Origin: an uncultured Actinomycetes bacterium
GTDB lineage: Bacteria > Actinomycetota > Thermoleophilia > UBA2241
Assembly: GCA_963709345.1 (NCBI GenBank)
Contig: CAVPVX010000010.1
Location: 32,001 to 96,000, forward strand
Length of the DNA: 64,000 nucleotides
Direction: 5' to 3'
Position numbers and translations under genes: made by a program. Positions 26,327 through 55,661 of this stretch are shown piece after piece; the first letter of the stretch is position 1; every line of letters starts with the position of its first letter. The notes under the pieces are model-generated. The model was not told the origin of the DNA. It did not search any database and saw nothing but the letters and a program-made list of their open reading frames with translations.

Positions 26327-26381
26327 ACCGGACCGAGACGTTCGCGCCCGCGGCGACCAAGCGTCGTAAGGAGGATCCCCA

Positions 26382-30649: not shown

Positions 30650-30704
30650 TTGACATCACTCGCAGGCCGATGTGCAATTGGGGACTAATTGATCGGTCGA
30701 TTAG
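30650..30704 (+). promoter_or_regulatory. aor promoter (TTGACA-17-TGCAAT) with palindromic operator CTAATTGATCGGTCGATTAG (30685-30704)
   Basis: 18/20 match to palindrome CTAATTGACCGGTCAATTAG; lies between divergent tetR and aor. Confidence 0.8.
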
Positions 30705-30840
30705 CCCTCGGCCGTCATCCTATCAGACGGGGGCGTGACGCGAGAGACGAGCGTGCCGAGCCGCAGTGCCGGTGACGCTCGATCGTCGGTGACGAGTCCG
30801 CTCACCGGGACGCGTCGCCCGTCGACAGCTGAGGAGACAG

Positions 30841-32634
30841 ATGGATTTCTACAGCGGACAGGTACTCAGGCTCGATCTCTCCAGCCTGCACGCGTCGGTC
30901 GAGCCGCTCGACCTCGAGTGGGCCCGGCTCTACATCGGCGGCAAGGGACTGCTGCTGCGATATCTCTTCGCCGAACTGGCGCCGGGAACGGAAGCCCTCG
31001 CCCCGGAGAACCCGCTGATCCTGGCGACGGGGCCCTTCGCCGGCACTGCCGTGGCGACGTGCTCGCGCCTGGCGGTGGGCTGCAAGAGCCCGGCCACCGG
31101 CACGCTGCTCGACTCCTACGTCGGCGGCTCGTTCGCTCCCGAGCTCAAGTACGCCGGCTACGACCTCGTCATCGTGACGGGCCGCGCTCCCGAGCCGACC
31201 CTGGTGCGCATCGAGGACGATCACGTGGAGTTCGTGCCGGCCGAGGGCCGGTACTGGGGCCTCGAGACGGCGGCGCTCGAAGCGCTGATCCGCGAGGAGA
31301 TGGGGCCGGCGGCCAAGGTGCTCTCAACCGGGCCCGCCGGCGAGAACCTCGTGCCTTACGCGTGCCTCTCGACCGATCAGTACCACAAGGCCGGCCGCGG
31401 CGGCGCCGGAGCCGTGATGGGCAGCAAGAACCTGAAGGCCATCGCCGTTCGCGGCACCGGCGCCGTCACCGTGCCCGACATGACGGTCTTCGCGACCGAC
31501 ATGCTCCGGCTGCAGAACGAACGCGTCCTGACGGTCGACAACGCCTGGACGTACGAGGAGGGCACGCCGTTCCTCGTCGCCGCCGTCAACGGAGCCGGCG
31601 CTCTGCCGACGCGCAACTGGAGCACGGGCACCTTCGACGGCGCCGACACGATCGACTCGACGGCGCTGCTGAGCATCCGCACGAAGATCCGTGCGTGCAG
31701 CCAGTGCCCTCTAGCCTGCCGCCAGGTGCACGACTTCGGCGATCACGTCTGTGAGGGCCCCGAGTTCGAGACCCTGGGTCTCTGCGGCTCGAACTGCGGG
31801 GTGAGTGACCTGGCTGCGGTGGCCGCCTTCAACCGGGAGTGCGACGAACTCGGGCTCGACACCATGTCGACTGGTGCGGTCGTGGCCCTGGCCATGGACC
31901 TCTGCGAGCAGGGCGCCGCCGACTACGGCCTTGCCTTCGGCGACACGTCCGGCTACCTCGAGGCGCCGCGCCTGATCGCGAGCCGCCGGGGGTACGGCGC
32001 CGAGTTGGCGCTCGGCGCCCGGGATCTGGCGGCTCTCAAAGGCCGGCCAGACCTCGCCGTCGAAGTCAAGGGTCTGGAGATGCCCGCCTACGACCCCAGG
32101 GGCACGCACGGCATGGGCCTGAGCTACGCGACCTCCGACCGCGGCGCCTGCCACATGCGCGCCTTCACCGCCGCCGACGACATCCTCGGAGGCGACGGCG
32201 CCGCCGACTCGATGGAGGGCAAGGCCCGGCTGGTCGCCGACCAGCAGGACTTCAGCGCTCTTGCCTGGACCGGCGTGTGGTGTGCGAACATGGCGCTCGA
32301 CACCGACTTCATCGGCGTTCATCTGACGCACCTGTGGGGGCGCGCCGTCACGAGCGAAGAACTCATGACGACAGGCGCCCGCATCTGGAACCTGGGCAGG
32401 CTCCTCAATCTGCGTGAAGGTCTCCTGCGCAAGGACGACGACTTGCCGGAACGGATCCTCAGCGAGCCCCACCCCGACGGTGTCGCGGCCGGCCGGGTGG
32501 TCGGGGCGGACGCGTTCCGCGAGGCTCTGGACGAGTACTACCGGCTGCGCGGCTGGGACGCCGACGGCGTTCCGACCGCCGAGACGCTGGAAAGGCTCTC
32601 CTTGACCGAGGTGGCCGGCGGCTCAAGCACCTGA
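30841..32634 (+). CDS. aor: Aldehyde:ferredoxin oxidoreductase (W/Mo) family
   Basis: YIGGKGL, KSPATG, GPAGEN, GRGG.GAVMGSKNLKAI, C..CP..C, EGPEFET, D.LGLDTMS, RGACH. Confidence 0.92.
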   Translation: MDFYSGQVLRLDLSSLHASVEPLDLEWARLYIGGKGLLLRYLFAELAPGTEALAPENPLILATGPFAGTAVATCSRLAVGCKSPATGTLLDSYVGGSFAPELKYAGYDLVIVTGRAPEPTLVRIEDDHVEFVPAEGRYWGLETAALEALIREEMGPAAKVLSTGPAGENLVPYACLSTDQYHKAGRGGAGAVMGSKNLKAIAVRGTGAVTVPDMTVFATDMLRLQNERVLTVDNAWTYEEGTPFLVAAVNGAGALPTRNWSTGTFDGADTIDSTALLSIRTKIRACSQCPLACRQVHDFGDHVCEGPEFETLGLCGSNCGVSDLAAVAAFNRECDELGLDTMSTGAVVALAMDLCEQGAADYGLAFGDTSGYLEAPRLIASRRGYGAELALGARDLAALKGRPDLAVEVKGLEMPAYDPRGTHGMGLSYATSDRGACHMRAFTAADDILGGDGAADSMEGKARLVADQQDFSALAWTGVWCANMALDTDFIGVHLTHLWGRAVTSEELMTTGARIWNLGRLLNLREGLLRKDDDLPERILSEPHPDGVAAGRVVGADAFREALDEYYRLRGWDADGVPTAETLERLSLTEVAGGSST

Positions 32635-32682
32635 TCGACCGGGCGAGACCCGGCCCGGACGAGACCGAGAGCGAGGGGCGCC

Positions 32683-33840
32683 ATGACGACGGAGCAGGAG
32701 GCGATCCGCCGGCAGACCGACTGCCGTGCAGACCGCTTCGACGCGGCGGCCGGAGGGCCGACGATGAAGGCCGTCGTGACGCTGGGCAACGGTGGACTCG
32801 ACATGCTGGACTACCGCGACGTGCCGCTGCCGGTCGCGGGACCGGGAGAGGTGCTGCTGCGGGTCCTCGCCGCCGGTGTCAACACCACCGAGATCAACAC
32901 CCGTCTGGGCTGGTACTCGGCGAGTGTGACGGAGGATACGGAGAGCACGGCGTCCGACCAGGAGACCGCTGCGGTCGCCAAGGAGGACGGCGGATGGAGC
33001 GCGCCCACTCCGTTCCCGCTCATCCAGGGCACCGACTGCTGCGGCCGCGTCGCGGCGGTAGGGCCGGCCGGCGACGACCGCCTGCTCGGTCGCCGCGTCC
33101 TGGTGCGCCCGTGCATGCGCCCTTACGGCTTCTCATCGCTGGAGACGGTGTGGATGGCATCCGACTTCGACGGCGCCTTCGCCGAGTACGTCAGGGTTCC
33201 CGCGTCAGAGGTCTTTGCGGTGGAGTCCGAACTCAGTGACGTGGAACTCGGGGCGCTGCCCTGCGCCTACGGTACGGCAGAGAACATGCTGCACCGCGCC
33301 GGCGTGAGCCGCGGGCAGCACGTCGTCGTCACCGGCGCGTCCGGAGGGGTCGGCGCCGCCGCCGTGCAGCTCGCCGGGCGGCGCGGCGCCACCGTGACCG
33401 CCGTCGCCGGCCGCGCCAAGGCCGAGCAGGTGCGGGCGCTGGGAGCCGACGCCGTCGTGGACCGGGACGCCGATCTCGTCGCGGCCATCGGCGAGCAGGC
33501 TGCGGACGTGGTCGTCGACAACGTCTCCGGCCCGGCCTTCGATGCCCTTGTCGCCGTGCTGAAGCGAGGCGGCAGGTACGTCTCCTCCGGAGCCATCGCC
33601 GGTCCCCTGGTCTCGTTCGACAAGCGCACCTTCTACCTGCGCGACCTGACGCTGCTCGGTTGTACCGCGTGGGACGAGCCGGTCTTTGCCGACCTCATCG
33701 GCTACGTCGAGCGGCGAGAGGTGCGGCCACCGGTCGCGAAGACGTATCCCCTCGAGCACATCGCCGACGCCCAGGCCGAGTTCCTCAAGAAGCGGCACGT
33801 CGGCAAGTTCGTGCTGATCCCTCCGCGGGGCAGAGACTGA
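32683..33840 (+). CDS. MDR-family (zinc-type ADH / quinone reductase-like) oxidoreductase; start may be 32764
   Basis: EVLLRV.AAGVN, PLIQG.DC.G, TGASGGVG, GKFVL. Confidence 0.85.
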   Translation: MTTEQEAIRRQTDCRADRFDAAAGGPTMKAVVTLGNGGLDMLDYRDVPLPVAGPGEVLLRVLAAGVNTTEINTRLGWYSASVTEDTESTASDQETAAVAKEDGGWSAPTPFPLIQGTDCCGRVAAVGPAGDDRLLGRRVLVRPCMRPYGFSSLETVWMASDFDGAFAEYVRVPASEVFAVESELSDVELGALPCAYGTAENMLHRAGVSRGQHVVVTGASGGVGAAAVQLAGRRGATVTAVAGRAKAEQVRALGADAVVDRDADLVAAIGEQAADVVVDNVSGPAFDALVAVLKRGGRYVSSGAIAGPLVSFDKRTFYLRDLTLLGCTAWDEPVFADLIGYVERREVRPPVAKTYPLEHIADAQAEFLKKRHVGKFVLIPPRGRD

Positions 33841-33856
33841 CGCGCCCCGCTGGGGG

Positions 33857-35587: not shown

Positions 35588-35732
35588 GAGGCCCTTCTTC
35601 CCGCGACCCGCCGGTGTTCGTGCTCAGCCTGTGTCCGCAAGGCGACTATCGCCCGTGCGCCCCGGTCTGCGGGGCCGTCGACCGCCGGTCCGTTCAGCCG
35701 CATGTCCGCCGTCCTTTTCGCCTGTCTCCAAA

Positions 35733-35764
35733 CTGGTATGTACCATCTGGCTGGTATGTACCAT
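35733..35764. promoter_or_regulatory. Tandem GntR (HutC/DasR-type) operator, 2x CTGGTATGTACCAT
   Basis: Exact 14-bp direct repeats at 35733-35746 and 35751-35764; near-palindromic core TGGTATGTACCA; third copy upstream of gntR. Confidence 0.8.
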
Positions 35765-35881
35765 GCACGCTGTGGCATACTGCTGTCAAGCGCCGGAGAG
35801 TCACCGGCCCCCGCAGTCCTGGCCGACGTGATGGAGCCGTCGCTCCCGTCGCCGGGCGCCACCACTTCGACTGGAGTCGTC

Positions 35882-37240: not shown

Positions 37241-37255
37241 GCGCCCGCCCCGGCC

Positions 37256-38032
37256 TCAGATCGGGGCCGAGGAAGGCCGCCCCGAGGCCGGCGACGGCGC
37301 GACGCCTTCGACCGGGGCGCTCACCGAGAACTCCGTGCGGTCACCGCGATACACGTCGCGGGCCAGCTCGACGACGGCGTCGTCGGCATCGAACACGGTC
37401 CGGGTGAGGACGATCGCCGGGCTGCCCGGCGCGACGCCCAACGCTTCGGCCTCGAAGCGGTCGAGCGTCACCGCCACGACCCGGGCATCGGCTTTCATGG
37501 GGCGCACGCCGTAGCGCGAGCGGAGGATCGCCCACAGCGAGCCGGTAAGGTCGTTCTCGAGCAGGTCGGGGAAGCGCTCGGCCGACAACTGGATGTTCTC
37601 GATGGCGATCGGCTCCCCCCTGGCAGTCCTCAGTCGCTGGAGGACGTGCACCCGGCCTCCGGGAGGGATGTCCAGCATCGCGGATGCCCGAGCATCCGGC
37701 TCGAGCGTCCCGGCTGCCAGTATCTCGGTGCCGGGCGCCCGGTCCGCCTCGGTCATGTTCCGCGTGAAGCTCCCGACGCTGAAGCGGAGCCGCGGCTCGG
37801 CGACGAACGTCCCGCGACGCGGATGGCGGTAGAGGTAGCCCTCCAGCGTGAGCGTCTCCAGTGCGTGACGCGCCGTCATGCGACTGACCTGGTACCGCTC
37901 GCTCAGCGCGCGCTCGGAGGGTACCGATGAATGGGGATCGAGGCGCCCGGCCTCTATCTGGTCGCGAAGGAGTGCGGCGAGCCACAGGTACAGGGGGCTC
38001 GAGCGCTCCGGTGTGCCCCGGGTGCTTGCCAC
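37256..38032 (-). CDS. GntR-family (HutC/UTRA) transcriptional regulator
   Basis: PSERALSERYQVSRMTAR, RRGTFVA, C-terminal UTRA YRGDR; GGAAGGGGGA RBS before GTG 38032. Confidence 0.9.
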   Translation of the reverse strand: MASTRGTPERSSPLYLWLAALLRDQIEAGRLDPHSSVPSERALSERYQVSRMTARHALETLTLEGYLYRHPRRGTFVAEPRLRFSVGSFTRNMTEADRAPGTEILAAGTLEPDARASAMLDIPPGGRVHVLQRLRTARGEPIAIENIQLSAERFPDLLENDLTGSLWAILRSRYGVRPMKADARVVAVTLDRFEAEALGVAPGSPAIVLTRTVFDADDAVVELARDVYRGDRTEFSVSAPVEGVAPSPASGRPSSAPI

Positions 38033-38142
38033 AGTCCCCCTTCCCAGCCGAGAGGATCGGCGGGTCCTTCTCGTCGATCCGGTGCCCGTGATGCCGGCGG
38101 AGGCAGCGCCGCCGGATTCGCGATAGGCTACCATACGGTTCA

Positions 38143-38156
38143 TTGGTACATACCAG
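38143..38156 (-). promoter_or_regulatory. GntR operator copy (CTGGTATGTACCAA on minus strand) upstream of gntR
   Basis: 13/14 match to the repeats at 35733 and 35751. Confidence 0.75.
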
Positions 38157-38301
38157 CAGAGACGGTGCGGGGGTGGTCGCGACTGTCGGCGGGGATCCTG
38201 CCGATGCGTGCATTCGTCGGTGGGAGCACGGTGCGGCCGACTATCATGGCCTGATTCGTTCGTCCTACCGAATATCCTGGTGTCTCCACAGGCGTCCGCA
38301 G

Positions 38302-38352
38302 CTAATTAACCGGTCAATCCGTCTTGCCAACTTGACGCAGCATGTGTATGGT
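38302..38352 (+). promoter_or_regulatory. BetI-like operator CTAATTAACCGGTCAATCCG (38302-38321) abutting promoter TTGCCA-17-TATGGT of the ABC operon
   Basis: 17/20 match to the palindromic consensus. Confidence 0.72.
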
Positions 38353-38442
38353 GACCAACACGTGTGGGAACAGTCTGGCGCCGCCGGCGCCATTGCGGTC
38401 CACGACGTTTCACGAGGCGTACACCTTAGGGGGAGTAGAGAC

Positions 38443-40131
38443 ATGGCTGACGAGAAATACGCGAGGGAGTACGGGCAGCACCTGGTCGACCAGGTGATGA
38501 AGGGCAAGATGACGCGCCGCCAGCTGCTCGTGCGCGCGTCCGTTTTCGGTCTTTCCGTGACGGCCGCCGGCCAGCTGCTCGCGGCGTGCGGCGGCAGCAG
38601 CGACGACTCGGCCTCGCCGGCCGCGTCCGGCATGCCGGAGCCCGTCATGGGCGGCACCATCAAGATGATCGGCCCGGCGCCGATCACCGACCCCGATCCG
38701 GTCACCATCTACGACCAGGGCGGCATCGTCCTCGTCTACCAGTTCCTTGAGTACCTGATCGACCTGGCCGACGACAACGCACTGGTGCCCAAGCTCGCGG
38801 AGAGCTGGGAGGCGAACGAGAGTGTCGACGTCTGGACGTTCAATCTGCGCCAGGGCGTGACCTACAACGACGGCAGCCCGTTCGGAGCCGAGGACGTGGT
38901 CACGAGCATGGAGCGCGTCCTCAACCCTGACAGCGGCTCGGGCGCTCTCTCGCAGCTCGGCGGCGTGCTCTCACCTGGCGGCACCAAGGCCGTCGACGAT
39001 GCCACGGTCGAGTTCACCCTCGACAAGCCCTTCGCCGACTTCCCGTACATGGTGTCCTCGGGCAACTACAACACCGCCATCCTGCCGCGCACGTACAAGG
39101 GCAACATCATCAAGAACCCGGTAGGCACGGGTCCGTTCATGCTCGACCAGTACGTGACCAAGCAGAAAGCCACCTTCAAGAAGAACCCCACCTACTGGGG
39201 CAAGGACGAACAGGGTCGTCAGCTTCCGTACCTGGACGGCATGGAGTACATCATGGTCGAGGACAACTCGGCCCAGAACCTCCAGCTCCAGTCCGGCGCC
39301 ATCGACCTGCAGCCGCAGACCGTGTTCCAGGGCGCGCAGGCGCTGTTCGCCGATCCCAACCTCCGCGTCGACATCTACCCGGGCACGGGCATCCGTGAGG
39401 TCGCCTTCAACGTGGACAAGGAGCCGTGGAAGGACAACCCCAAGCTCCGTCAGGCGGTCGCGTACTGCCTCGACCGTGAGGCCATCAACAAGGCCCTGTA
39501 CGACGGCCGCAGCAACCTCGGTTACGACACCTTCTGGGAGCCGTCCGTCTTCGCCGGCGCCCCGGAGTCGACCCCGCGTGCCCAGGACTACGACAAGGCC
39601 AAGGCTCTGCTCAGCGAGGCCGGCTATCCGGATGGCCTCGAGATCGAGCTCACCTTCGCGAAGTACCTCGAGAACCCGCAGTACGCACAGCTCATCCAGG
39701 AGCAGTGCAAGCCGGCCGGCATCACCGTCAAGCTGAATCAGCTCAGCTACGAGGCGTACTATGCCGGTGACGACGCCGACTACTACGGCACCACGCCGTG
39801 GATCAACGCGCCGATGAGCATCACCGAGTGGGGCAGCCGCCCGGCTCCCGGCATCTACGCCGCGGCCATGCTTCTGCCCGACGCCGTGTGGAGTTCGTCG
39901 CACTGGGACAACGCCGACTTCGTGAGCGCCTTCAACGAATATGAGTCCACCGTCGACGAGGCCGCCCGCATGGAGCTCGCCACCAAGCTCTCGGCTACCC
40001 AGCAAGAAGACACGCCCATCCTCTTGTCCTTCTTCATCACCCAGCTGCGCACGCAGAAGAAGAACGTGTTCGGCGTCAAGGGCCCAGGCTCGTTCTATTG
40101 CGACATGAGCCAAGCCTTCATGACCGCGTAA
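38443..40131 (+). CDS. ABC transporter family-5 (peptide/nickel-type) substrate-binding lipoprotein with Tat signal
   Basis: TRRQLL twin-Arg plus LAAC lipobox; PKLAESW, F.LRQGV.YNDG, PVGTGPF. Confidence 0.9.
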   Translation: MADEKYAREYGQHLVDQVMKGKMTRRQLLVRASVFGLSVTAAGQLLAACGGSSDDSASPAASGMPEPVMGGTIKMIGPAPITDPDPVTIYDQGGIVLVYQFLEYLIDLADDNALVPKLAESWEANESVDVWTFNLRQGVTYNDGSPFGAEDVVTSMERVLNPDSGSGALSQLGGVLSPGGTKAVDDATVEFTLDKPFADFPYMVSSGNYNTAILPRTYKGNIIKNPVGTGPFMLDQYVTKQKATFKKNPTYWGKDEQGRQLPYLDGMEYIMVEDNSAQNLQLQSGAIDLQPQTVFQGAQALFADPNLRVDIYPGTGIREVAFNVDKEPWKDNPKLRQAVAYCLDREAINKALYDGRSNLGYDTFWEPSVFAGAPESTPRAQDYDKAKALLSEAGYPDGLEIELTFAKYLENPQYAQLIQEQCKPAGITVKLNQLSYEAYYAGDDADYYGTTPWINAPMSITEWGSRPAPGIYAAAMLLPDAVWSSSHWDNADFVSAFNEYESTVDEAARMELATKLSATQQEDTPILLSFFITQLRTQKKNVFGVKGPGSFYCDMSQAFMTA

Positions 40132-40176
40132 GCGGACTGGAAGGTAGCGGACACAGACTGACGTAGGGTTCCCGGG

Positions 40177-41124
40177 ATGCTGCGCCTGATAGGTCGGCGA
40201 CTGCTCCTCATGGTGCCGACGCTGATCTTGGCGTCGATGCTGATCTTCGCGCTCGCCGAGGTCCTGCCCGGCGACGTGGGGCGCTCCATCCTGGGGCCCT
40301 ACGCCACGCAAGAACAGGTCGAGCTTCTCAACGAGAGGCTCGGCGCCGACAAGCCCATCTACGTGCGCTACGCCACATGGGCCGGCGGCTTCGTCACCGG
40401 CGACTGGGGAGACTCGCTGCTTCTCAAGGTGCCGGTGCTCCCCACCGTCATGAAGGCGCTGGGCAACTCGCTGGTGCTCGCGGGGTTCGCGCTGGTGCTC
40501 ATCGTGCCCACGTCCGTCCTCTTGGGCGTGTTCTCAGGCTTACGACGAGACAGCGCCCTCGACCGCACCATCACGGTCTCCACGTTGTCCATGACCGTCA
40601 TTCCCGAGTTCGTGAGCGGCGTCGTGCTGCTCTACGTCTTTGCGGTGTGGCTCAAGGTGCTGCCTGTCACGGCCATGCCGCCAGACGGCTCCCCGTTCGT
40701 GAGCCGCTTCTACTACCTGATCCTCCCGGCGATCCCGCTGATGTTCCTCGAGCTCGGCTACATCGCGCGCATGGCCAGGGTCGGCACCGTGCAGGTGCTG
40801 GCCATGCCGTACATCCGCACGGCCGTGCTCAAAGGGCTGCCGCGACGCAGGGTCATCTTCGGCCACGTGCTGCGCAACGCCATGGTGCCCACCGTCACTG
40901 TCATCGGTAGCCAGATAGGCTGGCTGATCGGCGGTCTGGTCGTTGTCGAGACCCTGTTCGTCTACCCCGGCATCGGCAAGCTCATGGTCAATGCCGCGCA
41001 GACGCACGACCTGCCCATGCTCGAGGCGGCGGTCCTCATGGTGGCGATCCTCTACATGTTGTCCAACCTCATCGCCGACATCATCGTCGCGCTTCTCAAC
41101 CCACGCATCCGGGCGGGCGGATGA
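40177..41124 (+). CDS. ABC transporter permease (DppB-like)
   Basis: LPGD, GDWG.S, YIRTA.LKGL, VETLF.YPG.G. Confidence 0.9.
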   Translation: MLRLIGRRLLLMVPTLILASMLIFALAEVLPGDVGRSILGPYATQEQVELLNERLGADKPIYVRYATWAGGFVTGDWGDSLLLKVPVLPTVMKALGNSLVLAGFALVLIVPTSVLLGVFSGLRRDSALDRTITVSTLSMTVIPEFVSGVVLLYVFAVWLKVLPVTAMPPDGSPFVSRFYYLILPAIPLMFLELGYIARMARVGTVQVLAMPYIRTAVLKGLPRRRVIFGHVLRNAMVPTVTVIGSQIGWLIGGLVVVETLFVYPGIGKLMVNAAQTHDLPMLEAAVLMVAILYMLSNLIADIIVALLNPRIRAGG

Positions 41125-42110
41125 GCATGGACGAGCGCAACGGTTCCCCCGGGCCTGACCCGGATCTGCAGGCGGAAGGCATGCAGGTGAGCTCGGATCC
41201 GGAGATGCTCGAACTCCGGGCGGAGGCCGCCGCAGGCCGCCAAGGCCAGGAACTCCAGGCCGACGCCGCCGCCGCCCTCGAGCAGAAGCGCCAGCGGCGC
41301 TACCTCGTCAAGGCTCTGCTGCGGAGCCCGACCTTCATGGTCGGCATAGTGATCGTGCTCTTCTGGATCATCATGGGCGCCTTCTCGATCTACTTCACGC
41401 AGAGCCCGACGGCCCAGGATGCCCTCTCGTCTCTGCAGGGGCCCAGCGCATCGCACTGGTTCGGCACCGACGACCTGGGGCGCGACGTGTTCGCGCGCAC
41501 CATGGCCGGGGCCCGCACCGTACTCATCATCGCGCCGCTGGCCACGCTGCTGGCGCTGGTGTGGGGCGGCATCATCGGCTTGGTAGCTGGCTTCTGGCGC
41601 GGGATCACCGACGAGATCATCATGCGCCTCGTCGACGTGCTGCTCGCCCTGCCGATCATCATCACCTCGATCCTCATCCTTTCGTTGTTGGGTAAGGGGA
41701 CGGCGATCATCATCGTCACGATCGGCGCGCTCTTCACACCGGTGGTCAGCCGGACCATCCGTTCGGCGGTCATCGGCGAGCGCGAGCGTGAGTACGTCAT
41801 GGCGGCTCGGCTGCGCGGCGAGCGCTCGGCGTTCGTGATGACGCGCGAGATCCTGCCCAACATCACCCAGCCGATCATCGTCGAGGGCACGATCCGCCTC
41901 GGCTACGCCGTCTTCACCGCCGCCACGCTGTCGTTCCTCGGCTTCGGGCTCCAGCCGCCGTCGTCGGACTGGGGGCTCACCATCGCCACCCAGCGCGTGT
42001 TCCTGCAGATCGCCCCATGGACGGTGCTGTTCCCCGCCCTGGCGCTCGCCTCTCTGGTGGTGGGCGTGAACCTGATCACCGACGGACTGGGAAGGGTGTT
42101 CTCGAAATGA
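41121..42110 (+). CDS. ABC transporter permease (DppC-like)
   Basis: HWFGTDDLGRD, EYV.AA..RG, EILPN, LSFLG.G.QPP..DWG. Confidence 0.9.
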   Translation: MSMDERNGSPGPDPDLQAEGMQVSSDPEMLELRAEAAAGRQGQELQADAAAALEQKRQRRYLVKALLRSPTFMVGIVIVLFWIIMGAFSIYFTQSPTAQDALSSLQGPSASHWFGTDDLGRDVFARTMAGARTVLIIAPLATLLALVWGGIIGLVAGFWRGITDEIIMRLVDVLLALPIIITSILILSLLGKGTAIIIVTIGALFTPVVSRTIRSAVIGEREREYVMAARLRGERSAFVMTREILPNITQPIIVEGTIRLGYAVFTAATLSFLGFGLQPPSSDWGLTIATQRVFLQIAPWTVLFPALALASLVVGVNLITDGLGRVFSK

Positions 42111-44266
42111 GCGCCGCCGATCAGCCTCTGGACACCCCGGCCACCACGAACGCCGCGCTCGACGTGCGCGACCTGGAGGTCACCTTCCATCGGCGCGGCC
42201 GCAGGTTGCCCGTGCTCAAGGGCGTGACTCTTCGCATCGACCCCGGCGAAGCCTACGGTTTGGTGGGCGAATCGGGGTGTGGCAAGACGACCCTCGCCAT
42301 GGCGGCCATGCGCTACCTCGCCGCGAACGGCACGCTCGACGCCGGCTCGGTGATGGTCGACGGTCAGGACGTCAGCACGCTCTCCGAAGAGGCGCTCCGC
42401 AAGTGGCGTGGCGGCAAGGTCTCGATGGTGTACCAAGACCCGACGCAGGCGCTCAGTCCCGCGATGCGCATCGGCGATCAACTCGCTGAGGTGTATCGGT
42501 ACCACGAGAGCGTGGACAAGGCTGCGGCCATGGAGCGCGCCCGCGAGAGCCTGGAGCGCGTGGCGATTCCCGATCCGGTCGCCACCCTGCGCCGCTATCC
42601 GTTCGAGCTCTCCGGCGGCCAGCAGCAGCGCGTCGTCATCGCCATGGCTCTGTCGGTCAACCCGCGCCTGCTGATCCTCGACGAGCCCACGACCGGTCTG
42701 GACGCGACGGTGGAAGCAGAGATCCTCGATCTCATCGAGGAGCTTCGCGGGCGCATCAACGCTGCGATCCTGCTGATCACCCACAACCTCGGACTGGTGA
42801 GACGACTCTGCGAGCGTGTCGGCGTGCTCTACGCCGGACGGCTCGTGGAGGAGGGGCCGGCGCGGGACATCTTCACCGATCCGCGCCATCCGTACACGAT
42901 GGGCCTGCTTCGCTGCGTGCCGCGCTTCGGCATGAACAAGACCGACGCGGCGCTGGAGACGATCCCGGGGACGCTCCCGGCTCTGGGCGAGCCCCTGGAG
43001 GGCTGCGTCTACTCCGAGCGATGCCCCATGGCCAAGCCGGTGTGCGTGCGTCGCGAGCCCGACCTCTTCGCTTGGCCCGGGGATGCGGGCTCGAAGGGAG
43101 CCGCTGAGGCCGAGGCCATGCCGGCAGACCCCGCCGCCTACTCCCCCCATCACGCCAACCCGGTCGGTGAGGGAGCGCGCCACGCGCGCTGCTACTTCTC
43201 CGCTCACGTCGCAGACATGCCGCGCCTGACCCCGGTGCTCGCGACGAGCCTGGAGGCGAGGGGCGGGACCGAGGGCGATGTGCTCGAGATCGACGACGTC
43301 AGCCGGACCTTCAAGGATGGTCGCAAGCGGCTGACCGCAGTGCACGAGATCTCCCTCAGCCTGAAGCGCGGGGAGACCTTCGGGCTCGTCGGTGAATCGG
43401 GCAGCGGCAAGACTACGCTGGCGAAGTGCGTCACCGGACTCATCGCAGCCGACTCCGGGACGGTCACGTTCGAGGGCAAGGAGCTGCGCTCCACCGCTGG
43501 ACGCCGCTCGCAGGATGCTCTGCGCGCCATCCAGATGGTCTTCCAGAATCCGGACTCCACGCTGAACCCCGCCTGGAGCACGCGCGCGATCCTCACCCGT
43601 GCCGTGCGCAAGCTGGGCGGAGGCGCCTCCGTGCGCGCCAAGGTGGACAAGCTCTCGGCGGACGTGCGCGTGGAGCCGCGCTTCCTGCTGCAGAGGCCGA
43701 CCGACCTCTCGGGCGGCCAGAAGCAGCGCATCGCGATCGCTCGTGCCTTCGCCGGCGACCCGACTCTGGTCGTCTGCGACGAGCCGGCATCCGCACTCGA
43801 CGTCTCGGTACAGGCGAGCATCCTCAATCTGCTCGTCGAGTTGCAGACCAGGGACCGGGTCTCGTACGTCTTCATCAGCCACGACCTCGCTGTGGTGCGC
43901 TACATCTCCGACCGCATCGGCGTCATGTACCTCGCCGAACTCATCGAGGTCGGCTCCGCCGAGCAGGTCTTCAGCCCGCCGCACCACCCCTATACAGAGG
44001 CGCTGCTCTCTTCGATCCCGAAGCTCGACTTCGACATCGAGCAGCAGCGCATCCCGCTGCACGGCAGCATGCCGAGCCTGAGCGACCCGCCGACGGGCTG
44101 CCGCTTCCACACACGCTGCCATCGCAGCCTCGGCGACATCTGCGCGAACGAGGTTCCGCCGTTCCAAGAAGCCGCCGACGGGCACACCTACATGTGCCAC
44201 ATCCCGCCGGACGAACTGCTCGCGGCCCAAAGCGCCGAGCGCCCGGCGACCCCGGCCGAAGCCTAG
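42107..44266 (+). CDS. ABC transporter ATP-binding protein, fused DppD/DppF double ATPase
   Basis: Two Walker A motifs (GESGCGKT, GESGSGKT), two LSGGQ signatures, HPYT and C.F..RC C-terminal domains; ends in TAG. Confidence 0.92.
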   Translation: MSAADQPLDTPATTNAALDVRDLEVTFHRRGRRLPVLKGVTLRIDPGEAYGLVGESGCGKTTLAMAAMRYLAANGTLDAGSVMVDGQDVSTLSEEALRKWRGGKVSMVYQDPTQALSPAMRIGDQLAEVYRYHESVDKAAAMERARESLERVAIPDPVATLRRYPFELSGGQQQRVVIAMALSVNPRLLILDEPTTGLDATVEAEILDLIEELRGRINAAILLITHNLGLVRRLCERVGVLYAGRLVEEGPARDIFTDPRHPYTMGLLRCVPRFGMNKTDAALETIPGTLPALGEPLEGCVYSERCPMAKPVCVRREPDLFAWPGDAGSKGAAEAEAMPADPAAYSPHHANPVGEGARHARCYFSAHVADMPRLTPVLATSLEARGGTEGDVLEIDDVSRTFKDGRKRLTAVHEISLSLKRGETFGLVGESGSGKTTLAKCVTGLIAADSGTVTFEGKELRSTAGRRSQDALRAIQMVFQNPDSTLNPAWSTRAILTRAVRKLGGGASVRAKVDKLSADVRVEPRFLLQRPTDLSGGQKQRIAIARAFAGDPTLVVCDEPASALDVSVQASILNLLVELQTRDRVSYVFISHDLAVVRYISDRIGVMYLAELIEVGSAEQVFSPPHHPYTEALLSSIPKLDFDIEQQRIPLHGSMPSLSDPPTGCRFHTRCHRSLGDICANEVPPFQEAADGHTYMCHIPPDELLAAQSAERPATPAEA

Positions 44267-44281
44267 AGCGCGGCTTCGGCG

Positions 44282-47513: not shown

Positions 47514-47550
47514 GTCGTGTTCCTTTGCGTTCCGGTGGGTGGTCTCTGCC

Positions 47551-48981: not shown

Positions 48982-49005
48982 CAGGTCGCTCCCGTCCCCA
49001 GCGTC

Positions 49006-49782
49006 CTAGCGGACGAGGTAGCCGCCGTCGACGACCAGGACGTGGCCGTTGACGTAGTCGGATGCGCGGCTGGCCAGAAAGACGGCCGCGCCCATCAGGT
49101 CCGCGGGGTCGCCCCAGCGATCGGCCGGGATGTGGTCGAGAACGCGCTTGTTGGTCTCCGGGTCACTCCGGGTCTGGGTGGTGATCTCGGTCGCGAAGTA
49201 CCCCGGGGCGATGCCGTTGACCTGGACGTTGTACTGGGCGAGCTCGTCGCAGTAGGCCTTGGTGAAGCCGGCCAGGCCGTGCTTGGTGGCGGCGTAGGCC
49301 GACGACCACTGGCCGCCGAGAAAGGAGAAGAGCGAGCAGACGTTGACGATCTTGCCGCTCCGCTGGGGGATCATGACCTTGGCGGCCTCGTGGGCCATCT
49401 CGAAGGCGGCGGTGAGGTTCACGGCCACGGTCGCGTCCCACTGCGGCCGGCCGAAGTCGATGACGCTCGCGAGCGGGCAGATACCGGCGCTGTTGACGAG
49501 GATGTCGAGTGAGCCGAACCGCTCGACACAGGTGTCGACGATGCCCTTCGGCGCGCCGGGCTCAGTGATGTCGACCTGCGCGAACTCGTACCCGACGCTC
49601 TCCGCCTCGATGAGCTCTCGCGTCGCGCCGTCGTCGTCCACGATGCTGGGCGCGAAGACGTTGGCCCCGCCTTTGGCCAGCGCGAGGGCGAACGCCTGGC
49701 CGAGACCTGTGTTGCCGCCGGTCACGACGGCGTTCTTGCCCTCCAGGGAGAAGAACCCCATCGCGAAGTCGCTGATGTCCAT
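49006..49782 (-). CDS. ygcW: SDR oxidoreductase, YgcW orthologue (KduD-like)
   Basis: F.M.FFSL.GK, TGGNTGLG, LFSFLGGQWS.AY.ATKH, DGGYLVR; ends in TAG. Confidence 0.85.
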   Translation of the reverse strand: MDISDFAMGFFSLEGKNAVVTGGNTGLGQAFALALAKGGANVFAPSIVDDDGATRELIEAESVGYEFAQVDITEPGAPKGIVDTCVERFGSLDILVNSAGICPLASVIDFGRPQWDATVAVNLTAAFEMAHEAAKVMIPQRSGKIVNVCSLFSFLGGQWSSAYAATKHGLAGFTKAYCDELAQYNVQVNGIAPGYFATEITTQTRSDPETNKRVLDHIPADRWGDPADLMGAAVFLASRASDYVNGHVLVVDGGYLVR

Positions 49783-49904
49783 GGACGCTGTCTCCTTTGT
49801 GCCGGACCGGGCGCCGGGCGGGACCCGGTCCGCTAGATGCTGCAGGTGCAGGTGTACGGGCGCGCACGCATGAGGCGATGCGCATCTTGGCGCGCTGAGA
49901 CCAG

Positions 49905-49956
49905 AGTATTCGGCCGGATGTTCAGTAAGTCAACCACGCAGGCGAACATTCTGCCG
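49905..49956 (-). promoter_or_regulatory. Promoter of the ygcWEU-etf operon (TTGACT-17-AATACT) with TGTTC/GAACA elements; shared with 22180-22231
   Basis: Minus strand reads CGGCAGAATGTTC..TTGACTTACTGAACATCCGGCCGAATACT. Confidence 0.7.
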
Positions 49957-49995
49957 TTCGGCGCTCCGTCCACCAAATCCGGGCCGGAGCGCGCG

Positions 49996-50916
49996 TCACT
50001 CAGGCTCCAGCTCGTCCGGGAAGCCGGGGGCGCGCAGGTCGGTGCCGACAGCCTCCTCGAGCATCTTGACCACCATGGGGGACTGCGCGCCGCCGCCGTA
50101 CACGGCGCGGGCGCGGGCGAAGATCTGCTCGGTGAGCCCCGCGAGCTCTAGAGGCACGCCGAACTCGCGGCCCATCTGGTGCGCGAAGTACAGGTCCTTG
50201 CGCGCCAGGTCCATCGTGAAGTTGATGTTGTAGCTGCCGTTCAGGATGAGCTGGCCCTCGGTCTCGTGCACGAAGCTGTTGCCCGAGCTGGCCTTGATGA
50301 CGTCCCAGGCCAGCTTGAGATCGACGCCGCCGCGCTTGGCCAGCATCAGCGCTTCGCCGTCGGCGACGAGATGGATGAAGGCCAGCATGTTGGTGATCAC
50401 CTTGATCACCGAGGCCTGGCCCAGCTCGCCGATGTAGAAGACCCTGCCCCCCATGGTCTCGAACACGGGCAGGTGCTTCTGGAATACCGCCTCGTCGCCG
50501 CCGACGAGGACGGTGATCATGCCGCAGGCAGCGCGGTGGACGCCGCCGGTCACCGGCGATTCGAGCGTCGCGATCCCCTTCTCCGCGGCCAGGGCGGCGA
50601 GACGCTGCAGTTCGTGCAGGTCATTGGTGCTCATGTCGATCCAGGTACCACCGGGGGCGAGGTTCTCGATGACGCCGCCCTCGCCGGCGACCACGTCGGT
50701 GACGACCTCCGGCGAGGGCAGACAGGTGATGACGGTGTCCGACGCGCGCGCCGTCTCCGCGACGGTGTCGGCGCAGGTTGCGCCCGCTTTGCCCAGGTCG
50801 ACGGCGCAACTCGCGTCAACGTCGTACACGGTGACCGGGAAGCCGTCGCGCAGCAGGCAGCCGGCGAGTTGCCGGCCGAGGGCTCCGAGCCCGATGTAGC
50901 CGATCCTCATGGTCAT
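49996..50916 (-). CDS. Beta-hydroxyacid dehydrogenase family NAD(P)-dependent oxidoreductase
   Basis: IGLGALG, DMST, ESPVTGG, IKVITNML (catalytic Lys), KDL. Confidence 0.88.
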   Translation of the reverse strand: MTMRIGYIGLGALGRQLAGCLLRDGFPVTVYDVDASCAVDLGKAGATCADTVAETARASDTVITCLPSPEVVTDVVAGEGGVIENLAPGGTWIDMSTNDLHELQRLAALAAEKGIATLESPVTGGVHRAACGMITVLVGGDEAVFQKHLPVFETMGGRVFYIGELGQASVIKVITNMLAFIHLVADGEALMLAKRGGVDLKLAWDVIKASSGNSFVHETEGQLILNGSYNINFTMDLARKDLYFAHQMGREFGVPLELAGLTEQIFARARAVYGGGAQSPMVVKMLEEAVGTDLRAPGFPDELEPE

Positions 50917-50961
50917 GCTGCCTCCGATGGCCGGTGTGGAAGTGCTGTGGAGTCCGTTCGG

Positions 50962-52413
50962 CTAGCCGCGCCGCGCGTGAGCGACGGCCTCGCCGTCCAC
51001 GCGGCACGCGGTCGCCAGCGCGTCCAGCCGGTCACTGCCGAGGTAGGGCTCGCTCGTGGCGCGCTCGGACAGGATGAGGTCGATCTTCTCGCACGCCGTG
51101 TCGAGCTCCGTCGTGCCTTCCTCGATCCATCTGTCGTAGGACAGCCGGTTCGAGACGGACGGCAGGTAGTGCTCGCCGGCGCGGATGCGCCGCGCCGTGT
51201 CCTTCTGGCCGAGGAAGCTCCCGCCCGGGCCGGCCGTGGCGATGGAGTCGCCCGCCAGCGTGGCCGGGGAGACCTCCACCGGGGCCATGAGACGCCGCAC
51301 CATGGCCGCGATCTCGTTGTCGATCACCGACTGCGGCAGGTACATGGTGTTGTGCGAGTCGATGAGGCCCCAGCCCGAGACGATGTCGGGGCCGGCGCTG
51401 CAGACGGTCGCCGTCTTCAGCGCCTTCTCGTAGCCGTTCTGGATCCCCGCGTGCTTGGCGTCGGTCGACAACCCGGGATTAAGCGTGGGGACGCCGAGGT
51501 AGTGCCCCACCTCGGTGGCCATGACGCCCATCAGGGCGCTCTCGACACATCCCAAGGAGAAGGTGGTGCGCAGCATGTCGAGCACGCCTGAACCGAAGCA
51601 GAAGACGAGTCTGGCTCCGGGCGCCGCGACCTGCAGCGCCGTGGCGATGCCGAGGAACTCGGCGAGACCCTGGGCGACGGTGCCCGCCAGCGTCACCGGC
51701 GACGTGGCGCCGGCGATCGTCATCGAGTACACCTCGATCGGTACGCCGTGGCCGGCCAGAGCGATGTGGATGTCGAGCGCCGCGCCGTCCACCTGGAGCG
51801 GCGAGGCGGCGGTGACGACGGTGGAGATGCGCGGGCGCTGCCGGAACCGCTCCAGGTCGCCGCCGAGCACCTTGCAGATCTCAAGGACCGCGTCGACCTC
51901 GTGCGGGCAGTCGACGAAGGTCACGTGCTTCCTGGTCTCGGTGAGCAGCGTGAAGTACTCGGTGAGCTCGCGCTGCTCCAGCGGGACGTCCGACGCGCTC
52001 ACCTGCGTCCACATGAGGTCGAGCTCTGAGAGCTCGTCGAGCACGGCGGTGGACTCGCGCACGTCCTGCAGCGTGCTGGCCCGGCGCATCCCTGTGCGGT
52101 GGTCCAGGGTCTTGGCGACGCAGCCGCTGGGCGCGAAGTGGAAGGGCTCGTGCTCACCGAGGACCACGTCGTCGGCCTCGGTGAGGCCGGCCATGAGGAC
52201 GGTGCGCGGGCACTGCCCGAGGGCCCACTCCACGAGCTCCCGGGGCAGGCGCGCGAGGCCTGTGGCCTCGTCCACGCGCGCGCCGCGCTCCTCGAGCCGG
52301 GGGAGTACGCGCGAGCCGTAGAAGCGCATGCCCACGTTGGCGAGAAGGTCCATCGCCTGGTCGGCGATGAGGCTCTTCTCGCCGTCGCTGAGCCGACTCG
52401 TGTTCGCCGTCAT
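50962..52413 (-). CDS. Non-pyrrolysine MttB-superfamily methyltransferase
   Basis: ASPLQ.D, AGATSPVTLAG, PTLNPGL-S-TDAK...Q.GYE, GPGGSFL; ends in TAG. Confidence 0.88.
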   Translation of the reverse strand: MTANTSRLSDGEKSLIADQAMDLLANVGMRFYGSRVLPRLEERGARVDEATGLARLPRELVEWALGQCPRTVLMAGLTEADDVVLGEHEPFHFAPSGCVAKTLDHRTGMRRASTLQDVRESTAVLDELSELDLMWTQVSASDVPLEQRELTEYFTLLTETRKHVTFVDCPHEVDAVLEICKVLGGDLERFRQRPRISTVVTAASPLQVDGAALDIHIALAGHGVPIEVYSMTIAGATSPVTLAGTVAQGLAEFLGIATALQVAAPGARLVFCFGSGVLDMLRTTFSLGCVESALMGVMATEVGHYLGVPTLNPGLSTDAKHAGIQNGYEKALKTATVCSAGPDIVSGWGLIDSHNTMYLPQSVIDNEIAAMVRRLMAPVEVSPATLAGDSIATAGPGGSFLGQKDTARRIRAGEHYLPSVSNRLSYDRWIEEGTTELDTACEKIDLILSERATSEPYLGSDRLDALATACRVDGEAVAHARRG

Positions 52414-52660
52414 CTCCGTTCACTCCTCTGGCCGAGACCTCTCGCCCAGTCGCGACCCGCGGCGGGCGTACTCCTGGCGCCGTTTCCAGCGGTCACCGCA
52501 GCACAATGGCACGCCGCTGGGGCACTGTCAACACGGGGCTTGCAGATGCGAGGCCCAACGGCCGTGAGGTGTTGCGTCTGAACGCGAAAGAGCCATAATG
52601 CATTGTGAATGTTGGCAGAGTGGCTGGAAACCTTCTCATACTGCTACGAAAGGGCAGGAG

Positions 52661-53227
52661 ATGATCAGAGCGGGGCAGGCGCCGTTCGGGTCGACCGAGA
52701 TGGACGACCTCGATCGTCGCATCATGAAGCTGCTCCGCCCCAATGCACGCCGCTCGTACGCCAGCATCGCGCGCGCCGTCGGGGTATCGGAGCCGACGGT
52801 CCGCAATCGCGTCGACCGCCTCATCAAGAGGGGCGCGATCCTCCCCATGGCCAGGGTCAACCCGGCAGCCATCGGCCTCCCTGTCGATGCCATGGTCGGC
52901 ATCCGCGTGAACCGTGGTTACGCGAAGGCGGTCGGGGCGCATCTCGCGGCCATGGAGAACGTCTCGTACGTCGGCTACACGACCGGTTCGTTCGACATCC
53001 TCATCGAGGCGCACCTGCCGGACAACGAGGGCCTCTACTCGTTCCTGAACGAGGATCTCGATCGGATCGAGGGCATAGCTCACACTGAGACCTGGCACAT
53101 TCTGCGCGCCGACAAGGTCAACTTCGAGTGGGACGGCGAGAACGTCGGCAGGGAGCCCCTCGCCGACGATGAGCCGGAGGCCGCGCCCGCCGATCCTTCG
53201 GCGGCGGCCGGGGAGGTCGCATCGTGA
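52661..53227 (+). CDS. Lrp/AsnC-family transcriptional regulator
   Basis: DDLDRRI...L..NAR.SY..IA..VGVSE.TV..RV, TTGSFDI; AGGAG RBS. Confidence 0.9.
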   Translation: MIRAGQAPFGSTEMDDLDRRIMKLLRPNARRSYASIARAVGVSEPTVRNRVDRLIKRGAILPMARVNPAAIGLPVDAMVGIRVNRGYAKAVGAHLAAMENVSYVGYTTGSFDILIEAHLPDNEGLYSFLNEDLDRIEGIAHTETWHILRADKVNFEWDGENVGREPLADDEPEAAPADPSAAAGEVAS

Positions 53228-54168
53228 GGGTGGGCTGCGTCGGCCTCGGTCACATCGGCCGTCACCTCGCGAGCAGCCTGGTACGCGCCGGCCACGGCGT
53301 CACCGTCCACGACCTGGATCCGGCGGCGGCTCAGGGCCTCGTCGAGGCCGGCGCCTCGTGGGCAGACTCGCCGGCCGCCGTAGCGCGCGCGTCCGAGTCG
53401 GTGATCACCTGCCTGCCCTCCATCGCCGCCGTCACGGAGGTCGTCGCCGGCGCCGGCGGCCTCGCCAGCGGATTCGCGCCCGGCGGCACGTGGATCGAGA
53501 TGAGCACCAACAGCCCGCACGAACTGGCGCGACTGGCGGCGCTTCTCGCCGAGAAGGGCGTCTCCACACTGGAGGCGCCGGTCACGGGCGGCGTCCACAA
53601 TGCCGAATCGGCCACCATCACCGTGCTCGTAGGTGGCGATGAGGACGTCTTCGCGAGACACGAGGACGTCTTCGCGGCGGTCGGAGGCAGGACCATTTAT
53701 GTCGGCGCCCTCGGCAAGGCCTCGAGCATCAAGGTCATCACGAACATGCTGGCCTTCATCCACATCGCCGCGTCCGCGGAGGCGTTCATGCTGGCCAAGC
53801 GCAGCGGCATCGACCTGCGTCTGGCCTGGGAGATCATCCGCGCCAGCTCGGGTTCCAGCTTCATCCTCGAGACGGAGAGCACGACCATCCTCGGCGGGAG
53901 CTACGACGTCGGCTTCTCCTTCGATCTCTGCCTCAAGGACATGGGCCTGGCGCTGGCGCTGGGCCGCGAGCTCGACGTGCCGCTCGACATCGCCGGCACC
54001 GTCGAGCAGTTGTTCGTGCGCGGTCGCGCCCGCTACGGAGGCGGCGCCGAGTACGCCATGGTCGCCAAGCTGCTCGAGGAGGCCTGCGGCACCGACCTGC
54101 GGGCGCCCGGCTTTCCGACCACGCTCAAGGAGTATCTGGCCACGATGCCGCGCGCCGAGGGCGCTTGA
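53224..54168 (+). CDS. Beta-hydroxyacid dehydrogenase family oxidoreductase (paralogue of 49996-50916)
   Basis: VGLGHIG, EMSTN, EAPVTGG, IKVITNMLAFIH, GTDLRAPGFP. Confidence 0.88.
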   Translation: MRVGCVGLGHIGRHLASSLVRAGHGVTVHDLDPAAAQGLVEAGASWADSPAAVARASESVITCLPSIAAVTEVVAGAGGLASGFAPGGTWIEMSTNSPHELARLAALLAEKGVSTLEAPVTGGVHNAESATITVLVGGDEDVFARHEDVFAAVGGRTIYVGALGKASSIKVITNMLAFIHIAASAEAFMLAKRSGIDLRLAWEIIRASSGSSFILETESTTILGGSYDVGFSFDLCLKDMGLALALGRELDVPLDIAGTVEQLFVRGRARYGGGAEYAMVAKLLEEACGTDLRAPGFPTTLKEYLATMPRAEGA

Positions 54169-54219
54169 CATCCTTGGCCGCGGGTTGTGTAGTGAGGGAT
54201 TAATTGACCGGTCAGTTAG
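54165..54219 (+). promoter_or_regulatory. mtbB promoter (TTGACA-17-TGTAGT) with operator TTAATTGACCGGTCAGTTAG (54200-54219)
   Basis: 18/20 to the palindrome; operator starts 35 nt after TTGACA, exactly as at 30650/30685. Confidence 0.82.
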
Positions 54220-55645: not shown

Positions 55646-55661
55646 GGAGGTGGGGCAGACC

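Follow-up and report, generated by a model that had tools for sequence, protein, structure and literature searches.

The stretch of DNA analysed here, 64,000 nucleotides long and hereafter called the window, spans positions 32001-96000 of contig C10 in the genome (G000) of an uncultured, soil-type Thermoleophilia actinobacterium, which comprises 3,110,482 bases at 69.5% G+C and has an estimated completeness of 98%. Among its genes are tetR, encoding a TetR-family repressor, and, divergent from it, aor, encoding an aldehyde:ferredoxin oxidoreductase (AOR); further along lie gntR, which encodes a second regulator, and the divergent operon of an ATP-binding cassette (ABC) importer, and finally the mtbB-mtbC-mttB operon, whose methyltransferase genes contain in-frame TAG codons for pyrrolysine (Pyl). 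An AT-rich palindrome of 20 bp precedes each of these three units (O1, O2 and O3, spread over up to 23.5 kb; Table 1). It is very probably here that the BetI-like TetR repressor encoded nearby binds, and to the palindrome being the operator of that protein, working as a switch over the three operons in the way proposed below, we assign a probability of about 0.85.

Direct reading of the sequence confirmed all three palindromes that the initial annotation had reported, at the same positions and with the same agreement to its consensus (Table 1). The one placing that had to be refined is that of O2, which does lie in the spacer in front of the ABC operon, but not inside the long open reading frame that begins at 38143, the binding-protein gene starting at the ATG at 38443. 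Each copy differs at one or two bases from the core found in the genus, ATTGACCGGTCAAT, the genus consensus of the full 20-bp palindrome being CTAATTGACCGGTCGATTAG. At up to 3 mismatches the window holds three matches where 0.00 are expected (100 dinucleotide shuffles, largest count 0), and in the whole 3.11-Mb genome only these three lie within 5 mismatches, with two further places at 6. When a weight matrix is derived from the three sites, they score 30.6-33.7 bits on it by construction, and the next-best place in the genome reaches 17.0 bits; it lies about 155 nt before the gene of a TetR paralogue that is 43% identical. Because the scores fall to 17.0 bits outside the three strong sites, the motif is not widespread at unrelated loci; a widespread motif had been named beforehand as the outcome that would count against a regulon. 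A repeat element, a terminator or a riboswitch was ruled out as well, there being three genomic copies only, no T-run after any of them, and no Rfam family in the three leaders; within the window Rfam recognises just two PYLIS elements, which belong to the pyrrolysine codons.

How far the arrangement is conserved was examined in 53 other species-level congeneric Thermoleophilia genomes, i.e. in 54 together with G000; 39 of the 53 are incomplete metagenome bins. The degenerate palindrome was searched with at most 2 mismatches, the flanks of the AT-rich matches were taken, and the flanking genes in the relatives were named by tblastn with the proteins of the window. Three classes of site emerged from this search at a threshold of at least 19 bits on the weight matrix. 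Class A, beside the tetR orthologue, is present in 35 of the 53 genomes, the divergent gene usually being aor and sometimes the dehydrogenase gene. Class B, upstream of the mtbB orthologue, is present in 32 of the 53, mostly 37-52 nt and at most 104 nt before the start codon. Class C, in the spacer between gntR and the binding-protein gene, was found in 16 genomes by pattern search. Because many genomes had given no class C site although they encode both the TetR and the binding protein, the 400 nt upstream of 20 more binding-protein orthologues were read directly, and 16 of these 20 turned out to carry a degenerate site of 17-25 bits at the same distance, which brings the total for class C to 32 genomes, with the operator 116-123 nt before the binding-protein start. 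The remaining four comprise one genome with an eroded site (G030), two with a variant (G009 and G070) and one with neither TetR nor site (G006). Sites of class C are the most degenerate of the three classes. In sequences anchored on the operator, the columns of the operator have a mean relative entropy of 1.50-1.84 bits, as against 0.27-0.42 bits for those of the flanks. Three extra sites in the genus fall outside these classes and stand in front of the genes of a dehydrogenase, of an MttB-like paralogue and of a short-chain dehydrogenase/reductase (SDR), and in G014 the mtbB operator is common to a divergent gntR while no importer gene is present. In G004, the closest relative (TetR identity 90%), the class A operator appears at two positions, 2280 and 2435, of one contig (locus L006, contig C8 of that genome). 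The two copies are 155 nt apart with a run of N in between, and a gap in the assembly or an artefactual duplication is the probable cause.

The distribution of the sites follows that of the repressor. An orthologue of the TetR (E at most 1e-60; identities span 56-90%) was identified in 38 of the 53 genomes, and all 38 have at least one site, those of G070, where the TetR is 56% identical, being weak or variant. Among the 15 genomes in which the orthologue was not found, a site occurs only in G074, a genome that is 66% complete. An mtbB orthologue (84-92% identity) is kept by five genomes that lack the TetR, and in four of these (G077, G062, G028 and G026) there is no operator within 4 kb of mtbB, the best scores there being 2.3-9.8 bits; G077 and G028 nevertheless retain the TTGAC promoter box upstream of mtbB. 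As for the binding protein, there are five genomes without the TetR in which no orthologue of it was found. Because the three placements recur in most of the genomes that have the TetR orthologue and almost never in those that lack it, the comparison supports a three-operator regulon made up of tetR/aor, the gntR/ABC importer pair and mtbB-mtbC-mttB. At the mtbB promoter of two genomes there is a variant palindrome, TCGATTGACCGGTTAGTTGG (L152 in G009, L153 in G070). G070 carries the diverged TetR mentioned above and in G009 no TetR orthologue was found; the variant may represent a co-diverged pair of operator and repressor.

The position of the palindrome relative to the putative promoters is likewise conserved. 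In the window, an TTGACATC box occurs at 30650-30657 and at 54165-54172, each time beginning 35 nt before the palindrome; the exact figure given by the initial annotation thus holds at aor and mtbB in this genome, whereas across the genus the distance ranges from 31 to 40 nt and is mostly 34-36 nt. Counted with G000, 34 of 36 class A sequences have a TTGAC box within that range of 31-40 nt upstream of the operator, and 29 of 33 class B sequences have one at 33-39 nt. In both classes a 17-nt spacer leads from this box to TGCAAT or TGTAGT, and the operator follows after a further 6-7 nt, so placed that it would span about +1 to +20 at the aor, tetR and mtbB promoters. In 35 of 36 class A sequences the tetR strand has a TAnnnT element that begins 7-14 nt beyond the operator's far edge. 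Transcription of tetR would hence begin at the operator too, and two face-to-face promoters would share a single site. At mtbB, the stop codon (TGA, 54166-54168) of the preceding beta-hydroxyacid dehydrogenase gene sits inside the -35 hexamer (54165-54170), which means that transcription running on from the AsnC and dehydrogenase genes would be stopped by the operator as well. Class C is built differently: in 17 of 18 sequences the operator comes first, then after 1-3 nt a TTGCY box and, beyond a spacer of 16-18 nt, TATNGT.

Table 1. Sites and genes of the proposed regulon, and their neighbours, in window coordinates
Feature	Position	Strand	Description
tetR	29896..30600	-	TetR-family repressor, 234 aa, translated from ATG 30600
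Predicted aor promoter	30650..30678	+	TTGACA 30650-30655, 17-nt spacer, TGCAAT 30673-30678
Operator O1	30685-30704		CTAATTGATCGGTCGATTAG; 18/20 to the earlier consensus; common to the face-to-face aor and tetR promoters
Predicted tetR -10	30717..30722	-	TAGGAT; predicted from the conserved TAnnnT
aor	30841..32634	+	Tungsten-type aldehyde:ferredoxin oxidoreductase; Pfam AFOR_N 239 bits, AFOR_C 363 bits
Medium-chain dehydrogenase/reductase	32683..33840	+	Pfam ADH_N, ADH_zinc_N; after aor
gntR	37256..38143	-	GntR/HutC-type regulator, Pfam GntR and UTRA; divergent from the ABC operon
Operator O2	38302-38321		CTAATTAACCGGTCAATCCG; 17/20; weakest copy; gntR/ABC operon spacer
ABC operon promoter-like site	38324..38352	+	TTGCCA, 17-nt spacer, TATGGT; begins 2 nt after O2
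ABC importer operon	38443..44266	+	Pfam: binding protein, two permeases, fused double ATPase
Family-5 binding protein	38443-40131	+	Starts at ATG 38443; twin-arginine signal and lipobox
ABC permeases	40177-41124 and 41121-42110	+	Pfam
Fused double ABC ATPase	about 42107-44266	+	Pfam
AsnC/Lrp regulator	52598-53227	+	Pfam, NCBIfam; AsnC flanks mtbB in most relatives
Beta-hydroxyacid dehydrogenase	53224-54168	+	Pfam, NCBIfam; directly upstream of mtbB
Predicted mtbB promoter	54165..54193	+	TTGACA 54165-54170, 17-nt spacer, TGTAGT 54188-54193
Operator O3	54200-54219		TTAATTGACCGGTCAGTTAG; 18/20; ends 37 nt before the mtbB start codon
mtbB	54257..55645	+	Dimethylamine:corrinoid methyltransferase; in-frame TAG (Pyl) 55295-55297
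mtbC-like corrinoid protein	55650..56291	+	Pfam B12-binding, B12-binding_2
mttB	56443..57912	+	Trimethylamine:corrinoid methyltransferase; in-frame TAG (Pyl) 57424-57426

O1 begins 85 nt upstream of the start codon of tetR, and the product of this gene has the domain make-up of a TetR-family regulator, with the Pfam domain TetR_N (PF00440) at residues 48-94 (38.2 bits, cut-off 24) and the BetI-type ligand domain TetR_C_6 (PF13977) at residues 116-223, the latter by a narrow margin (31.3 bits, cut-off 27). The C-terminal domain contains an ...IDGLA... stretch, and an alignment of 18 orthologues and 4 paralogues reveals that an aromatic-rich stretch of the ligand domain is kept (F129, F132, F133, W155 and W163), which reads LY-x-WYW...KL-x-WLG. 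Such a stretch is compatible with a pocket for methylammonium groups, of which it is no proof. The resemblance to BetI extends to the operator. In Ruegeria pomeroyi, BetI1 is reported to footprint on the palindrome ATTGACG*CGTCAAT, which is said there to fit the betI-box consensus (PMC12442346); the genus core ATTGACCGGTCAAT has the betI-box-like form ATTGAC-N2-GTCAAT and matches that sequence (ATTGACGCGTCAAT) at 12 of 14 bases, only the two central bases being different. The BetI likeness proposed by the initial annotation therefore stands as regards the ligand domain and the operator core, and fails as regards the identity of the protein, which scores 42.8 bits on the BetI equivalog model of NCBIfam (TIGR03384) where 201.3 are required. 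By this measure the local TetR is not BetI, nor an orthologue of BetI.

Outside the window the genome encodes paralogues of this TetR. None of the paralogue loci (36-45% identity) carries the motif described here, and different AT-rich palindromes lie in front of them instead: AGTTAGTCACACAACTAACT on contig C7, and TAATCAATCAAGTGATTA on contig C4, at C4:13038-13057, with the paralogue itself at C4:13193-13810. TetR paralogues adjoin MtbB-like paralogues on C7 (339641-340222 on the minus strand, with the MtbB-like gene from 340395 on the plus strand) and at loci L032-L034. The comparison of these loci points to a family of TetR/methyltransferase modules whose operators would have diverged. The methyltransferase itself is also multiplied, as residues 1-346 of MtbB give 8 tblastn matches at E 1e-100 or better in G000, one to the orthologue and seven to paralogues. 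The latter lie at C7:340395-341417, C7:348960-349988 and C8:444-1472, among others; the three listed are 60-63% identical, and the open frames of the MtbB paralogues end 7 to 87 residues past the position of the Pyl codon. Since numbers in the genus are similar, this suggests a large expansion of MtbB-like genes across the genus.

The genes under the three operators were annotated by Pfam and NCBIfam profile searches. In the Protein Data Bank (PDB), the nearest relatives of the aor product are 9mqx (E 1.1e-138) and 1aor (E 1.4e-120), followed by the formaldehyde oxidoreductase 1b25 (E 1.9e-88); judged by these hits it is closer to the true AORs than to formaldehyde oxidoreductase, and it was likewise placed nearer to them than to GAPOR or BamB. 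It misses the cut-off of the NCBIfam AOR equivalog (208 versus 868 bits), the match spanning residues 4-213 only. The medium-chain dehydrogenase gene that comes after it, as it does in several relatives, is probably in the same operon; its product reaches no NCBIfam equivalog, the best being the PIG3 quinone oxidoreductase subfamily (142 versus 297 bits). AOR has five paralogues in the genome, one of which, at C11:8363-8965, lies about 5 kb from pylD. For the gntR product the best NCBIfam model is PhnR (154.6 bits, under the cut-off of 296.75), and the closest solved relatives of the importer's binding protein are peptide, opine or nickel binders (best E 5.6e-42).

Both methyltransferases pass the cut-offs of their equivalog models. 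MtbB scores 398.5 bits on TIGR02368 (cut-off 369.1) and 540 bits on Pfam Dimeth_Pyl, and MttB 740.2 bits on TIGR02369 (cut-off 525); an Rfam element begins exactly at the TAG codon of each, PYLIS_2 at 55295-55394 in mtbB (65.3 bits versus 36) and PYLIS_3 at 57424-57523 in mttB (71.5 bits versus 38). The mtbC-like protein stays below the cut-offs of all NCBIfam corrinoid models and does best on the glycine-betaine model MtgC. The window further encodes a second corrinoid protein and four members of the MttB family without Pyl. Two of the clusters without an operator deserve mention, of which the one at 24860-29832 converges on tetR, is syntenic with it in most relatives and is a second methyltransferase cluster (two non-Pyl MttB-like genes, a corrinoid protein and a gene of the ornithine cyclodeaminase/mu-crystallin family). 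The other, a long minus-strand cluster at 44282-52413 between the ABC and mtbB operons, has no operator in this genome and encodes electron transfer flavoprotein (ETF) alpha and beta, a GlcD-like FAD-linked oxidase, an FGGY kinase, an SDR, a beta-hydroxyacid dehydrogenase and a non-Pyl MttB-like protein. The genes for pyrrolysine itself are on another contig, with pylS at C11:18405-19130 and pylD at C11:14136-14921, and no operator lies near them, the best matrix score over the 17 kb of C11:6000-23000 being 7.2. Since pylS and pylD sit on C11 without a box, the "Pyl operon" that had been counted among the targets is to be read as the operon of the Pyl-containing methyltransferases.

On this basis the proposed switch would operate as follows. 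In the absence of its ligand, a TetR dimer would bind each operator. At O1 it would cover about +1 to +20 of two face-to-face promoters, that of aor and the dehydrogenase gene and that of tetR, and because of this overlap a single dimer would block both and the repressor would regulate its own synthesis. The same geometry at O3 would silence mtbB-mtbC-mttB together with the read-through from the AsnC and dehydrogenase genes, and O2, which abuts the -35 box of the strong ABC promoter and faces the promoter of gntR, would probably also act in repression, by occluding the -35 region, the gntR promoter, or both. A small methylated amine would free the repressor, the candidates being trimethylamine, dimethylamine or an imported choline-like precursor; this type of effector is proposed because of the betI-like operator, the BetI-type ligand domain with its aromatic stretch, and the nature of the targets. 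The outcome would be inducible synthesis of Pyl-containing methyltransferases, with the pyl genes outside the regulon. For the AOR two roles are conceivable: it might oxidise an aldehyde that arises from the carbon skeleton of whatever the importer brings in, or, while methyl groups are being oxidised, serve as a redox valve linked to ferredoxin. What had been advanced earlier, a single amine-sensing repressor over uptake, aldehyde oxidation and the Pyl methyltransferases, is thus borne out by the genus comparison as far as the three-operator regulon is concerned, and the amine remains the conjectural part of it.

Several observations weigh against this proposal and qualify it. Because 39 of the 53 compared genomes are incomplete bins, a gene or site called absent from them is one that was not found, and because the compared genomes are kin, the genome counts overstate the independent support. 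A strict sigma-70 scan called a promoter in front of the ABC operon only and nothing at aor or mtbB; the aor promoter escapes it because its -10 element has no A at position 2, and because the -10 elements of aor and mtbB are weak and uncalled, the +1 used above derives from the -35 box alone. In four genomes (G007, G018, G027 and G064) the mtbB operator occurs without a TTGAC box. That O2 abuts the -35 box of the ABC promoter from upstream is unusual for simple repression and leaves room for activation by TetR at this site. Metatranscriptome runs, with at most 0.12 of the words matched, yielded only short contigs, which cannot reveal where transcription starts and whose origin may be a relative or DNA; in four runs contigs 88-99% alike cover mtbB and mtbC and none the promoter bin, which makes them uninformative on the starts. 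As for the ligand, a search of PDB sequences with the TetR returned nothing closer than E 1.4e-08 and no informative ligand, and given this lack of a close solved structure and the failure on the BetI equivalog model, any ligand named for it is a guess.

A different interpretation of O2 is conceivable. The TetR might act there on gntR only, or it might activate the importer promoter from a position upstream of the -35 box, a location that is often occupied by activators. The gap between the end of the operator and the -35 box is 2 nt in this genome and 1-3 nt in 17 of 18 sequences, the mtbB operator of G014 is common to a divergent gntR in a genome with no importer gene, and the O2-type sites are the most degenerate, all of which would suit such a role. 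Against it stand the rarity of TetR-family activators and the tightly kept distance between operator and importer start; moreover, in R. pomeroyi BetI-type boxes overlapping the -35 box act as repressor sites (PMC12442346). We consider this interpretation of O2 doubtful, yet worth keeping in mind. That a different protein altogether binds the palindrome is very improbable. Members of the GntR/HutC and AsnC/Lrp families both bind palindromes, and the former is encoded next to O2 and the latter adjoins mtbB in most genomes, but neither gene adjoins all three site classes. The most constant placement of the site is instead beside tetR (35 genomes), and the sites are gone where the TetR orthologue was not found, even where mtbB is kept; the sequence is a betI-type box, typical of the subfamily to which this TetR belongs.

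Two further alternatives concern the physiology behind the switch rather than the binding itself. According to the initial annotation, the inducer is cleaved to a methylamine and an aldehyde (for instance choline by a trimethylamine-lyase), the AOR taking the aldehyde and the Pyl enzymes the amine. The predicted co-regulation of an aldehyde-oxidising enzyme with di- and trimethylamine methyltransferases, here and in the genus, would fit this pathway, but neither a CutC-type choline trimethylamine-lyase (0 candidates) nor the ethanolamine ammonia-lyase EutB was found in G000, whose estimated completeness is 98%. There are, in addition, three operators only and none at a lyase gene, and some relatives have the dehydrogenase gene and not aor divergent from tetR. 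These results tell against the cleavage step, and we regard the pathway as improbable. The other alternative is an anaerobic counterpart of the bet system, in which choline or a close analogue would enter through the importer and serve as the effector. Dehydrogenase and AOR would oxidise this compound by way of an aldehyde, a task that betA and betB perform aerobically, and the methyltransferases would demethylate the product. Importer, dehydrogenase and aldehyde oxidiser parallel betT, betA and betB, the operator resembles the betI box at the 12 of 14 bases given above, and the TetR has the BetI-type C-terminal domain; four non-Pyl MttB-family genes with a corrinoid protein flank tetR, and the corrinoid protein of the mtbB operon does best on the MtgC model, if below its cut-off. 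The individual proteins fit this picture less well, in that the TetR fails the BetI equivalog model, the binding protein belongs to the peptide/opine/nickel family 5 and is not a betaine or choline binder, and the dehydrogenase does best on quinone-oxidoreductase/enoyl-reductase models and not on alcohol dehydrogenase ones. Furthermore, the substrates of the Pyl enzymes in the proposed regulon, di- and trimethylamine in free form, are not products of choline oxidation, and no glycine/betaine reductase (GRDB) match was obtained in G000, a search in which the control genomes were silent too. On balance this alternative appears unlikely.

The proposed regulon shares features with several known systems. 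Like BetI (E. coli betT/betIBA; R. pomeroyi BetI1), the local protein is of the TetR family and has the TetR_C_6 domain, its operator core is nearly identical to the BetI1 site, its gene is predicted to be autoregulated from a divergent promoter region, and a transporter would be controlled together with catabolic enzymes for a methylated amine. In contrast to the BetI system, the palindrome is longer, 20 bp with conserved outer arms CTAAT and ATTAG, the repressor would act not on betTIBA but on aor, a family-5 ABC importer and the Pyl-dependent di- and trimethylamine methyltransferases, and the host looks anaerobic. For E. coli BetI, one report describes a single specific target, the betI-betT spacer (PMC5934670). 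The TetR/tetO pair of Tn10 offers a parallel for O1, as it too involves a homodimeric TetR-family repressor and a palindrome over two opposed promoters (predicted here), so that one operator region governs both regulator and target, with release by a ligand (presumed here). It differs in having tandem operators at one locus, as opposed to three dispersed ones, of which one lies upstream of a -35 box, and in serving resistance and not catabolism. The mtb, mtt and mtm operons of Methanosarcina have the same enzymes, Pyl codons and PYLIS elements, and their methyltransferase genes, like those described here, are expected to respond to the substrate; there the transcription machinery and the regulators are archaeal, whereas here the operator is that of a bacterial TetR. 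Literature searches turned up no paper in which the Pyl methyltransferase genes mtbB or mttB of a bacterium are under a TetR-type regulator; those retrieved are not relevant, as PMC6716910 mentions tetR only in a figure legend on a grd cluster, PMC3639795 concerns a Pyl-containing TetR gene of M. acetivorans, and PMC8604678 and PMC13044021 have nothing nearer to the subject than tetrahydrofolate or tetramethylammonium.

The mechanism itself, repression by a locally encoded TetR protein, is conventional, and the interest lies in its unusual targets. Regulation of Pyl-containing methyltransferases in bacteria is essentially undescribed, and in the present case sequence alone suffices to name a regulator, the operator it probably uses and the three targets, a genus-wide comparison lending support. 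The analysis contributes a co-occurrence control, the promoter geometry and the class C sites that strict patterns miss. Recognition of the betI-box type would thereby extend to a distant subfamily with quite different targets, and the uncultured Thermoleophilia of soil and sediment gain a concrete, testable switch. At a higher level we tentatively envisage, as a possibility that goes well beyond the operator assignment, that a BetI-like sensor of methylated amines was recruited in this anaerobic-looking lineage to run a module of import, AOR and Pyl methyltransferases, and that this module is one of several paralogous TetR/MtbB-like pairs, which by means of palindromes of their own would induce different UAG enzymes, the Pyl decoding genes staying outside the switch. 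If this is true, the bacterial demand for UAG as a pyrrolysine codon would be set transcriptionally, substrate by substrate.

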